A stretch of DNA of 64,000 nt from a virus (IMGVR_UViG_3300042914_002848); one strand, 5' to 3'; shown: positions 14,175-17,515, counted from the first letter of the stretch. Made by a program: numbers and translations. Notes: generated by a model from the sequence alone, not told the origin.

Positions 14175-14366
14175 TTAATTTTGTTCTTCGTGAATTTTTC
14201 CTATTGCTTTCACCTCATATTTGTATCCAGAATCTGAATTCGTTTCAAATACATTTGCATAATACTCTGCCGATTCTTCGGTATCAAACTCCCAAACTTC
14301 ACCATGCCCGTCCAATAAAATCACGGGAACATTCTTTTTAATGAATTTTACAATTACAAAGCTCAT
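14175..14366 (-). CDS. hypothetical protein
   Basis: 63-aa ORF. Confidence 0.45.
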   Translation of the reverse strand: MSFVIVKFIKKNVPVILLDGHGEVWEFDTEESAEYYANVFETNSDSGYKYEVKAIGKIHEEQN

Positions 14367-14941
14367 TTATCCTCCAAATTAATTTTTTCTAATGGTATTT
14401 CTTTTCCTATTTGCTTTTCAACGCTTTTAATTACATTAATTCTATCTTGTGGATTTTTAGATGTACACCATATCCAAGCCAATGATTTTTTTATATTGTC
14501 AATTTCACTCTCATACCCTTTGATGTTTTTTTCAATAAGTATTTCATCATCGGTATCCAACTCATATACTATATCATACTTAACTGCTAAATCAACCATT
14601 TCTATTAAATTATCAGTATCATATGCCTTTTTTAACCTTAAAAAATCATCACCACTACCCCCTCTATCGGGATGGGTTTTTATAGATAAGTTTTTAAATA
14701 ATTTTTTGTATTTACTATCAACCTTTTTTTCAATCTGAGGTTTTGATTTTGATGGTTCGGATGTATTGGGTTCATCGGGTCTAACTTCCCCCGTTTCCTC
14801 ATTCACCCAATACTCCGTAATACCATCTTTTGAATCTCCCCCAGATTCATTTTTTTTATTTTCAGACAAAAACTGTCCAAAAAAGGAGTTAAATTTATTT
14901 AGATAAGTATCAAAATCTGATTGCATATCCTCTAACTCCAT
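14363..14941 (-). CDS. J-domain (DnaJ-like) protein
   Basis: J-domain signature YKKLFKNLSIKTHPDRGGSGDDFLRLKKAYD includes the HPD tripeptide. Start set at MELEDMQ to avoid overlapping groEL. Confidence 0.55.
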   Translation of the reverse strand: MELEDMQSDFDTYLNKFNSFFGQFLSENKKNESGGDSKDGITEYWVNEETGEVRPDEPNTSEPSKSKPQIEKKVDSKYKKLFKNLSIKTHPDRGGSGDDFLRLKKAYDTDNLIEMVDLAVKYDIVYELDTDDEILIEKNIKGYESEIDNIKKSLAWIWCTSKNPQDRINVIKSVEKQIGKEIPLEKINLEDK

Positions 14942-14963
14942 TTGAATGTATTTACATTTCAAA

Positions 14964-16571
14964 CTATATTTGGTCAGCTTTCGGTTCACGCTTTTCTTCG
15001 GGTTCATTGACAATCATACATTCAGTTGTCAATAGAGTCCCAGCAACCGAAACTGCTTTTTCCAATGCGGTCCTTACAACCTTTGTAGGGTCAATTACAC
15101 CATTTTCAACCATATCAGTATATGAATCTTCCATTACATTATACCCATAAGTATTTGATTCCGCACCTTTAACACTATCAATGATTGGTAGTGGTTCACA
15201 TCCCGAATTTTGTAGAATTGCTTCCATTGGTGATGAACACGCATTCACTACAATATTATATCCAATATCATAATCGGATTTTTCATCCCTATTCAATCCC
15301 TTTGCTGAATGAATCAACGCTGCACCACCACCTGCTACAATACCTTCTTCCATCGCTGCTTTTGTAGCAAGGATAGCATCATCAAACAGGTCTTTCTTTT
15401 CTTTCATTTCCACTTCGGACTGCGCACCAACCCTAATTACAGCAACACCGCCTGATAGTTTGGATAACCTTTTATGTAGTTTTTCCTTTTCCCAGTCAGA
15501 ATTAGATTTACTGATTTCGGTTTTGACATCTTCAATTCTTTGATTGATTTCTTCTTGCGAACCTTTACCACCTACAAGTACAGTTTCCTGCTTATCGGAT
15601 ACTACTTTATCACAATTACCCAAATCATCAATCGTTACATCTTCCAAATCCCCATTTACACCACCAAACACTTTTGTTCCACAAAGTGCAGCCATATCCT
15701 GTAGGATTTCGGTTCGTTCAGTTCCAAACCCCGGTGCTTTAACTGCTAAACACCTTAGTGTTCCTCTCGCAGCGTTCACAACCATAGTTGCTAATGCTTC
15801 TGCTTCAATTTCGTGTGCTATGATAGCAATCGCTTCATTTTTTGCAGATACATTTTCCAATAGATGAAGAATATCATCCATCTTATTGATTTTACCATCA
15901 TACAAAAGAACTTTTGGTGATTCCAATGTACAATTTAATCTCTGACGATTGTTAATAAAATAGTGAGATAAATATCCCTTATCAAACAACAATCCTTCTA
16001 CAATCGTTAGTTCATCTTCAGAATGATTTCCTTCCTCTACAGTGATAACACCATCCCTACCAACTTCTTTTACTGCATCAGCAATCATACAACCAATCTT
16101 AGTATCGTTGTTTGCTGATATTGCTGCTACATTTTCAATCTTATCAGTATCTTCCAACTTAATGGAAATTTTAGATAGATTATTAATGATAGTATCAGCT
16201 GCATCGGCCATCCCCCTTCTCAAATGGATTGGGTTTGCTCCACTCTTTTCAATCTCACTCATACCCTCATTAAAGATGTATTGAGCAAGTACCGTGGATG
16301 TAGTAGTTCCATCACCCGCGTTATCCGCTGTTTGCTGTGCTGCTTCTTTGATTACTTGCGCACCAATGTTAATGGTATTATCAGAAAACTCCACCGATTT
16401 GGCAACCGTAACACCATCTTTGGTGATATGTTGTGTACCATCTCGCTGAATGATTACATTCCTGCCCTTAGGTCCCAATGTAACTTTTACTGCATCCGCC
16501 AGTTCGTTTACTCCTTTTAGGAGCTTTTCACGCGATTCCTTTCCGTGAAAAATTTGTTTTCCTTTTGCCAT
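14964..16571 (-). CDS. groEL: chaperonin GroEL (Cpn60)
   Basis: 535 aa. Starts [42 protein letters not shown] and carries GDGTTT and the AVKAPGFG block. Confidence 0.92.
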
Positions 16572-16575
16572 AGAT

Positions 16576-17205
16576 TTATTCTCCTTCTGTTTTTTGTTTT
16601 ACTTCGTTCATTATTTTATTTAAAATATGCTGCTTTAATCTTTCAATTCTGAATTGTGGTTGAGTTCCCCTAATGTTACCCCTATTGTTGTGGTAGCAAT
16701 TGAAGCAGATGAACCTAAGATTCTCCCTACGATGATTTTTCCAATCATCATCTAAATGGTCTAATATCAAAGGTATATTACCATCACTCAATCTCCGTTC
16801 ATTGTATCCACAAACATGACAACAATAATCAAATGGTGGGTCTAAAGTATGTCCAATCTTTGATAACCTCGTTTTCAAAGACCTGATTGAATATTCAGGA
16901 TACTTACCCTCAAAAATATCGTTTATTAGTTTATGGGCTTTTGTTTTCTTTCTTGGTTTTCGTGGAGTTTGGTTTCTATTTAACTTTTGTAATTCCCACA
17001 AAGATAAGCCTGATTCGGAATCAATGTATTGTAATGCATATTTTTTGTATGAATTAAAAGAAACTCTCAAAAAAGTAGCGGCTTGCCGATTAGATGGTGT
17101 ATTTTTCATAGCATACCTAATCTGATTTTCTGTCAGTCCAAGAGGTTCTCTCCCCTTTCCCAACACATAACCATTTTGCAAAACCGTACCCTTTTGAGCC
17201 CCCAT
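16576..17205 (-). CDS. HNH homing endonuclease
   Basis: C-terminal HNH motif [45 protein letters not shown]. It is inserted between groES and groEL. Confidence 0.7.
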
Positions 17206-17221
17206 ATTATGAAAAAAAATA

Positions 17222-17515
17222 TTAGTTATCGGATAATTTTACCATCAAAATTTCACTTTCACGGTATAGATTATATTTTACTCCATCAATTTTAATTTGG
17301 GTGCCTGTTCCATCTAAAAGAACTTCATCATCCACTCTTAATTTCATAGGTATCTTAACACCTTGCTGAGTAAATAATCCATCACCAACTGCAACAATTT
17401 TTCCATTCATTGTTTCTTTTGCAGTTTCGGGTTTGTATAACCCACCTTTTGTTTTTTCATCGTGCTTGCTTACCAAAACAAGCACATAATCATTCATTGG
17501 TTTATAGTTCATCAT
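17222..17515 (-). CDS. groES: co-chaperonin GroES (Cpn10)
   Basis: 97 aa following the GroES pattern: KPMNDYVLV, KTKGGLY, IVAVGDG, KIDGVKY, ILMV. Confidence 0.8.
   Translation of the reverse strand: MMNYKPMNDYVLVLVSKHDEKTKGGLYKPETAKETMNGKIVAVGDGLFTQQGVKIPMKLRVDDEVLLDGTGTQIKIDGVKYNLYRESEILMVKLSDN

Follow-up and report, generated by a model that had tools for sequence, protein, structure and literature searches.

The window analyzed here, a 64,000-nt stretch of viral DNA (IMGVR_UViG_3300042914_002848) whose open reading frames (ORFs), coordinates and strand were read from the sequence, carries a compact minus-strand run of five genes: groES, a 209-aa ORF that combines a helix-turn-helix (HTH) with an HNH endonuclease domain, groEL, an ORF for a J-like protein and a 63-aa ORF. 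The HNH gene (16576-17205) is best explained as an old homing-type HTH-HNH insertion that reached fixation 5' of groEL (14964-16571) in the common ancestor of the viral GroELs of this clade, selection on the protein having preserved it ever since. We read the whole as a vertically inherited, tightly packed, same-strand chaperone cluster of a large T4-like aquatic phage; this explanation, together with the roles proposed below for its proteins, is in our judgment probable, with appreciable room for doubt. All five ORFs that a first-pass annotation had claimed (the chaperonin pair, the HNH gene, the J-like gene and a more distant ClpS-like gene) were found where it had placed them, on the minus strand. 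It is the fixed HNH-groEL pair, and not a homing signature as that annotation had it, that is the most interesting element of the cluster.

Relatives were counted as in-clade when their GroEL was 59-95% identical to that of the window and as out-of-clade at 52% or less. A first scan of IMG/VR found an HNH ORF directly upstream of groEL in 18 of 18 in-clade loci (GroEL identity 64-95%), and an alignment-based scan found one just upstream of groEL in 34 of 34 (59-95%), with the HNH stop within ~10 nt of the groEL start in 31 of these. None of the 46 out-of-clade loci has an HNH ORF adjoining groEL. The same pairing is present at 11 of 11 further metagenome loci, made up of ten ENA/JGI loci, which were retrieved via distant HNH homologues, and one metagenome contig. 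The matches listed from a metagenome scan with GroEL were mostly bacterial GroELs, with two in-clade loci among them, one of which is cut off upstream. We also assembled a set of near-identical relatives that share one GroES sequence, representing 10 distinct places, and all 10 carry the 209-aa HNH gene. In that same set, a 329-aa methyltransferase-like ORF just upstream of groES is present in three places (L332, L334 and L335, where it lies at 1959-2948 of the locus between a 145-aa ORF and groES) and absent from the other seven (L333 and L336-L341), as it is from the window; its profile signal is faint for N6_N4_Mtase and weak for Cons_hypoth95. Because this gene is polymorphic among these relatives, the sampling was able to detect presence/absence polymorphism. 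An HNH-free groES-groEL junction, for which the first-pass annotation had suggested looking in related phages, was found in none of the 34 IMG/VR loci, 11 metagenome loci and 10 near-identical places. Possession of the HNH gene is a shared derived character (synapomorphy) of the viral GroEL clade.

What the HNH gene constantly adjoins is groEL, and not the junction of groES with groEL. In the window, 16 nt separate the groES stop from the HNH ORF and 4 nt separate the HNH ORF from the groEL ATG, and most lineages have a gap of 3-4 nt between HNH and groEL. Most sister lineages have two or three small ORFs (330-765 bp) between groES and HNH and keep a gap of 3 nt from HNH to groEL, and in one ENA/JGI lineage neither groES nor the J-like gene is found nearby, yet HNH and groEL are still paired. 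The earlier statement that the HNH gene is inserted precisely between groES and groEL is accurate for the window and does not extend to most sister lineages. The extra ORFs of the sister lineages (L010-L018, L087-L090) code for acidic proteins of ~49-59 aa, likely membrane proteins of ~107-143 aa and proteins of ~70-84 aa.

Purifying selection on the HNH gene is as strong as on groEL. Estimates of dN/dS, made with synonymous sites near saturation between subclades, were 0.035-0.09 for HNH, 0.06-0.23 for groEL, 0.05-0.13 for groES and 0.11-0.19 for the J-like gene. Across sister lineages the HNH protein is better conserved (64-91% identity) than GroEL (63-81%). When identities were compared pair by pair over 26 distinct HNH/GroEL pairs (325 comparisons), those of HNH tracked those of GroEL (Spearman 0.83), with no outlier that would suggest an endonuclease swap. 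Both GC and GC3 of the HNH gene equal the genome mean. With no HNH-free junction, a low dN/dS, genome-typical composition and co-divergence with groEL, the placement of this gene fails as the 'classic signature' of homing invasion that it had been taken for. The groEL ribosome-binding site, GAAGGAG (16581-16587), is encoded by the last HNH codons (...T-E-G-E), 9 nt 5' of the groEL ATG, and its position inside the HNH 3' end would make a clean deletion of the HNH gene costly; the embedded site cannot account for constraint across the whole HNH protein. More distant HNH homologues (31-41% identity) occur at other genome positions in other GroEL-bearing phages, which indicates that, over long evolutionary times, members of the wider family have changed their location.

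The identity of the HNH protein was borne out by a match to the PHROG 'HNH endonuclease' family (1.9e-11) and by a CxxC...LDH...N...CxxC.H motif, invariant in 26 distinct relatives, that supplies the catalytic His/Asn/His and two CxxC zinc-ligand pairs; an HTH DNA-binding domain comes in addition. Residues C129, H130, C132, D149, H150, N162, C167, C170 and H172 are invariant in these relatives along with much of the HTH. The HTH-like domain (approximately residues 26-59; 17029-17130) is N-terminal and the zinc-ribbon HNH core (C129-H172; 16690-16821) C-terminal. The HNH domain is ~31% identical to T-even 'F-TflIV'-type entries, the family resembles these and other phage HNH endonucleases annotated as homing enzymes, and an ancient homing origin of the gene is plausible because of this family resemblance. 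Searching PDB sequences with the HNH family profile gave nothing significant. The window holds no HNH paralogue and hence no sign of family expansion, and a pattern scan of 185,579 cellular genomes detected no HNH relative. An assignment as a T4 endonuclease VII-type resolvase, considered from the CxxC...DH...CxxC pattern, was supported by no profile or fold evidence.

The groEL gene next to it codes for a 535-aa group I chaperonin that passes both the Pfam Cpn60_TCP1 model (4.8e-66, 223.9 bits against a cut-off of 34.3) and the TIGR02348 GroEL equivalog (638.5 bits against 582.1), and that matches solved GroELs in PDB at up to 5.8e-159. It is 46% identical to E. coli GroEL, the numbering of which was checked at D52, D87 and D398. 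The residues compared in the ATP/Mg site (T30-P33, K51, D52, D87-T91, I150, S151, D398, G414-G416 and D495) are identical to those of E. coli throughout, and the apical residues that bind substrate and GroES (Y199, S201, Y203, F204, L234, L237, L259, V263 and V264) are all kept; this conservation covers the GroEL of the window and eight relatives. The ATP-binding residues, which the first-pass annotation had left to be verified, are thus all present. GroEL has a charged tail in place of the C-terminal GGM repeats, and the inter-ring contact residues (105, 434, 452 and 461) vary within the clade. Double-ring contacts and a GGM tail are typical of E. coli GroEL and not universal, and the ring architecture of the phage protein may differ from that of E. 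coli. The best GenBank phage GroEL is only 49% identical, and a pattern-limited scan of 185,579 genomes turned up no cellular GroEL with more than 52% identity.

The 97-aa co-chaperonin encoded by groES (17222-17515) matches Pfam Cpn10 (7.5e-21, 74.4 bits against a gathering score of 21.1), PHROG co-chaperonin GroES (1.7e-15) and GroES in PDB (1.7e-14), and lies under the NCBIfam GroES cut-offs (75 against 96). Its mobile loop, KTKGGLYKP, is one residue shorter than that of E. coli and has Leu-Tyr-Lys in place of Ile-Val-Leu; the roof hairpin is kept in the alignment. Judged by their residues, GroEL and GroES are complete and carry what is needed for ATP hydrolysis, substrate binding and GroES binding, and with the profile cut-offs passed (TIGR02348, Cpn60_TCP1, Cpn10) the phage does encode both proteins as first proposed. 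The two most likely form a phage-specific folding cage. Such a cage would fold phage proteins, much as T4 needs GroEL and gp31 for its capsid protein, and by this analogy its clients would be structural proteins.

The gene after groEL (14363-14941) codes for a 192-aa protein whose most likely start is the ATG at 14941, 22 nt 3' of the groEL stop and used by public gene calls; alternative starts at 15007 and 15013 would overlap groEL. A profile of its 12-sequence family matches J domains in PDB at E=3.9e-5, with 46 of 48 matches being J proteins, and hhalign against the J domain of E. coli DnaJ gives 94.1%. Six of eight family members match Pfam DnaJ themselves, the best at 5.7e-5. The match spans only profile positions 16-51 of 63 (helix II-HPD-helix III) within a J core of helix II-HPD-helix III-IV at 14579-14719. 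The HPD tripeptide (14666-14674) and the surrounding K-K-L-[FY]-K-x-[LI]-[SA]-x-K-x-HPD do not vary among relatives whose overall identity is only 29-40%. An AlphaFold (AF2) model (pLDDT 68) shows a helix-loop-helix in which helices 75-89 and 97-108 flank the HPD, and fold searches with this model retrieved no J domains. The core is flanked by the conserved motif WVNEETGEVR and by a helical hairpin at the C-terminus that contains LAWxW, for neither of which any known relatives were found. By profile and motif, we class the J-like protein as a divergent, partial J domain. Through its HPD it would activate the ATPase of the host's DnaK, and it may hand DnaK a client bound by its other domains. 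Both this protein and the HNH protein are labeled 'hypothetical protein' in public records, and a minimal HPD protein adjoining groEL, unannotated there, is new. The J-like gene is missing in some clade members, and in L087-type phages a carbamoyltransferase gene directly follows it.

The ClpS-like ORF (21870-22115, minus strand; 81 aa, core domain only) lies 4.4 kb upstream of the chaperone cluster. Its assignment as ClpS-like was upheld by Pfam ClpS (1.6e-10, 41 bits against a cut-off of 23), and JGI gives the name ClpS to its close relatives. When it is aligned with the E. coli protein, the equivalents of N34, D35, D36 and H66 are seen to be kept, with T38->H and M40->F; in one sister lineage the pocket His (the H66 equivalent) is replaced by N. 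The protein starts three residues before the first core strand and has no N-terminal extension, a form common to about a dozen of 54 representative relatives. Truncations of the E. coli protein are reported to show that the N-terminal extension of ClpS is needed for handing substrates to ClpA. Since this extension is missing, the prediction for the phage protein is inhibition of ClpAP N-degron proteolysis rather than an adaptor role: the core would bind N-degrons and/or the ClpA N-domain without delivering substrate, and would so damp N-degron proteolysis by host ClpAP. In relatives, and also in three further viral lineages, ClpS-like genes recur no more than a few kb from groEL, and with this query they are rare in GenBank phages (2 of 50,697 records). 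Single-sequence phmmer matches of the ORF (21870-22127) to designed TPR repeats in PDB were discarded as an artefact of many weak repeated matches, and two long repeat proteins in the search for representative relatives were set aside for the same reason. No paper on a phage ClpS was found in the literature. A ClpS core without its delivery arm in a phage cluster is a new observation, and the J-like and ClpS-like proteins are compact candidate phage tools for manipulating host Hsp70 and ClpAP.

The source of the window is a roughly 200-kb T4-like aquatic phage, and its host is probably a member of the Bacteroidota. All 99 sizeable ORFs lie on the minus strand. The PolB shares 50% identity with the Microcystis phage Mel-JY01 protein and ~31-34% with the next-best matches, among them Stenotrophomonas and Methylophilales phages and T4-like cyanophages; there is also a T4-type clamp loader (match at 3e-83). 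Related IMG/VR viral contigs reach 173-186 kb, and a public contig of 201,914 bp carries the identical GroEL. No GenBank phage matched the region in a megablast search. The hint to the host comes from a 633-aa protein (30722-32623) with a cohesin domain and a Por_Secre_tail type IX secretion C-terminal sorting domain, a signal typical of Bacteroidota.

We propose that the HNH protein is an anciently fixed, putatively still active site-specific DNA endonuclease of homing ancestry, which would be kept by a benefit to the phage or to the linked groEL allele. The most likely benefit would be the cutting of the matching region in co-infecting genomes that lack the gene, leading to marker exclusion and co-conversion of groEL; such a role in competition between phages is favored here on the model of the T4 seg and mob genes. 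It is very improbable that the protein is instead a mobile free-standing homing endonuclease, a recent or recurrent invader of the groES-groEL junction that is spreading among phages. The gene does have the looks of one: it is a separate HTH+HNH ORF with a conserved gene on either side, it resembles phage HNH endonucleases that annotations call homing enzymes, and it has distant homologues (31-41%) elsewhere in other GroEL-bearing phages; groES, for its part, directly adjoins groEL in distant phages and bacteria. This reading is largely refuted by the lack of presence/absence polymorphism across all places sampled, by a dN/dS of 0.035-0.09 with saturated dS, by co-divergence with groEL and a fully ameliorated composition, and by a place beside groEL that is kept where groES is missing or lies 330-765 bp off. 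A domesticated protein that no longer homes is possible, although we lean against it. It could be an HTH regulator of the chaperone operon or of another phage promoter, a nuclease directed at host or competitor DNA, or a DNA-processing enzyme, and coupling of expression would then be the only reason for its place next to groEL. The invariant catalytic core argues for retained nuclease chemistry rather than DNA binding alone, no operator-like repeat or promoter signal was identified, and nothing ties the HNH protein to any particular alternative pathway. Set beside the competition role specifically, a domesticated regulator or nuclease is nearly as likely as a retained competition nuclease. We consider it unlikely that the viral GroEL and the HTH-HNH protein are an obligate pair evolving together, with a former homing endonuclease as permanent partner of a chaperonin gene, either as a driver of the linked groEL allele through mixed infections across the clade or as a coupled nuclease or regulator, and with the J-like and ClpS-like proteins as decoys in place of a normal co-chaperone and adaptor. 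Such a pair would be a stable symbiosis of endonuclease and cargo, of a kind not described for phage chaperonins.

Several results weigh against our preferred explanation, that of a chaperone cluster with a retained endonuclease and two host-directed proteins. As every sampled clade member has the HNH gene, no homing target is visible, and the role of the protein as a competition weapon is conjecture; the HNH ORF also falls under the cut-off of Pfam HNH_3 (E=0.028). The inter-ring contacts of E. coli GroEL (K105, E434, R452, E461) are not kept (K105S, E434S, R452E), the last of these changes being the one carried by the engineered single-ring SR1 mutant. A scan for promoters and terminators gave counts equal to the shuffled expectation and defined no transcript. 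The J-like ORF alone reaches E=0.022 and 15.3 bits against Pfam DnaJ, where the cut-off is 27.8, so that the first-pass call of a J-domain protein after groEL stands on the family profile and invariant HPD and falls on the Pfam cut-off for the single sequence. The ClpS-like protein scores 17 bits against NCBIfam equivalogs with cut-offs >140, and alignment of its C-terminal half to E. coli ClpS is ambiguous for the ClpA-contact residues. These two proteins might be relics or structural mimics without chaperone or adaptor function, which would reduce the module to groES and groEL. The low scores just given are in keeping with this, as are a J match of only ~35 residues, fold searches that recovered no J domains, the missing ClpS extension, the 4.4 kb with unrelated ORFs between ClpS and the cluster, and the lack of the J-like gene in some clade members. 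We nevertheless find the idea doubtful, because the HPD and flanking helix residues are invariant across proteins of 29-40% identity, the family profile is significant against J domains, the dN/dS of the J-like gene is 0.11-0.19, the N, D, D and H of the ClpS pocket are kept, and ClpS recurs near groEL in several viral lineages. Next to no weight, finally, is given to the region being cellular DNA, whether a bacterial groESL locus or a prophage remnant. GroEL does pass a bacterial equivalog model; the one-strand arrangement of all 99 ORFs, the T4-type PolB and clamp loader, the 173-186 kb IMG/VR viral contigs of the relatives, and pattern scans of 185,579 genomes without a cellular GroEL above 52% or a cellular HNH relative all speak for a virus.

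The remaining features of the locus and its surroundings are as follows. The 63-aa ORF that closes the run (14175-14366, minus strand) overlaps the stop of the J-like gene by 4 nt, has no Pfam or PHROG match and no assigned function, and is 87-92% conserved in the closest relatives only. A 44-nt spacer lies 5' of groES (17516-17559, minus strand). A motif resembling the Shine-Dalgarno (SD) sequence precedes only 19 of the 99 ORFs (19%), compared with 7% at random positions; groES and groEL both have a strong (A/G)AAGGAG SD (AAGGAG within 17516-17530 for groES, 16581-16587 for groEL), and both may belong to a small set of genes geared to strong SD-dependent translation. Profile searches of the ORFs between groES and the ClpS-like gene gave no proteostasis-related match. 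The name 'proteostasis module' given to the region at first fits the cluster from groES to the J-like gene and is loose for ClpS, which is 4.4 kb off with unrelated ORFs in between. That the phage takes over host folding and degradation, as suggested along with the name, is a conjecture. No tRNAs were found in the window.

Two small HAD-superfamily phosphatase-like proteins flank the region (18003-18353 and 22482-23060), the former being 63-93% conserved beside the chaperone cluster throughout the clade. Downstream of the cluster are an Endonuclease_NS DNA/RNA non-specific endonuclease with an apparent signal peptide (12925-13593) and a NUDIX hydrolase (12384-12788); downstream of groEL in relatives, Endonuclease_NS recurs in L001, L004, L014 and L087, and NUDIX in L001, L004 and L081. 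A 571-aa protein with a PA14 domain is encoded at 26693-28408. A low-GC island at ~34000-48000 (GC 25-29%, against ~33% elsewhere) is rich in sugar-modifying genes, including those for a GT2+DUF5672 protein (38761-40113), a DegT-type aminotransferase (40789-42075) and a nucleotide-sugar epimerase (48013-49047), and two GT1 glycosyltransferase genes lie just past it (50138-52926). It looks like a phage polysaccharide or glycan biosynthesis cluster.

Viromes have already yielded GroEL/GroES pairs encoded by phages, and the chaperonin itself is not new. Viral GroES>GroEL operons of virioplankton have been described, including that of Cellulophaga phage phi38:1 (Marine et al. 2017, PMC5649160). 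The window shares with them a canonical group I GroEL with its own GroES, the bacterial gene order, and a charged residue in the hydrophobic tripeptide of the GroES mobile loop, as reported for many viral GroES (PMC5649160), and differs in having a clade-wide HTH-HNH gene between the two and a J-like gene after groEL. An ORF also separates groES and groEL in phi38:1, but when checked as a possible member of the same HNH family it proved to code for a 90-aa protein unrelated to the 209-aa HTH-HNH protein. The chaperonins EL gp146, OBP gp246 and AR9 gp228 are likewise phage-encoded GroEL-like ATPases. That of EL is reported to work without a co-chaperonin (cited in PMC5649160), and that of AR9 has been described as single-ring and as part of a prospective new group from giant phages (PMC9598537). 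The GroEL of the window differs from these proteins in passing the bacterial equivalog model, being 46% identical to its E. coli counterpart and having its own GroES. T4 gp31 and RB49 CocO are closer in setting, as T4-like phages there too supply a co-chaperonin for capsid folding (cited in PMC5649160); those phages borrow host GroEL and have a co-chaperonin without the roof hairpin, whereas the phage of the window brings both proteins and its GroES keeps the hairpin.

The J-like and ClpS-like proteins depart further from their known counterparts. Rki of phage RB43 has a full N-terminal J domain. The J-like protein of the window has only helix II-HPD-helix III (perhaps IV) in the middle of the protein, the remainder having no known relatives; what the two share is a phage origin, a J-type HPD motif and a presumed interaction with the host's DnaK. 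Rki has been reported as a phage J-domain protein (Perrody et al. 2012, as cited in PMC12619734), and DnaJ/DnaK of 'moraphages' have been described (PMC12619734). E. coli ClpS and the 81-aa protein of the window belong to the same Pfam ClpS fold family and share the N34, D35, D36 and H66 equivalents, but the extension of ~25 residues in E. coli ClpS has no counterpart in the phage protein, and T38 and M40 are H and F.

The HNH gene finds its nearest parallel in the free-standing endonucleases of T4, which are encoded between conserved genes, cleave the genes next to their own and bring about marker exclusion (PMC2988022); mobE, for example, lies between nrdA and nrdB (Edgell et al. 2010, PMC2988022). 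With the T-even HNH homing endonucleases it has in common a stand-alone HNH ORF between conserved genes and a modular design of nuclease and DNA-binding parts. The domain order is reversed, as the T4 mob genes encode an N-terminal HNH and a C-terminal DNA-binding region (PMC2988022). T4 has far more homing endonucleases than any related phage (PMC2988022), from which it follows that such genes vary between relatives, in contrast to the HNH gene of the window, fixed in every sampled clade member under strong purifying selection. In this clade, a member of a nuclease family usually viewed as selfish and short-lived has stayed linked to groEL, with selection on it as tight as that on the chaperonin, through divergence to 59-63% GroEL identity. 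The pair offers a natural system for asking why free-standing endonucleases persist, and whether they are freeloaders or functionaries. What is new here, in an operon type otherwise known, is a clade-wide endonuclease partner maintained by selection, together with two stripped-down host-interface proteins.

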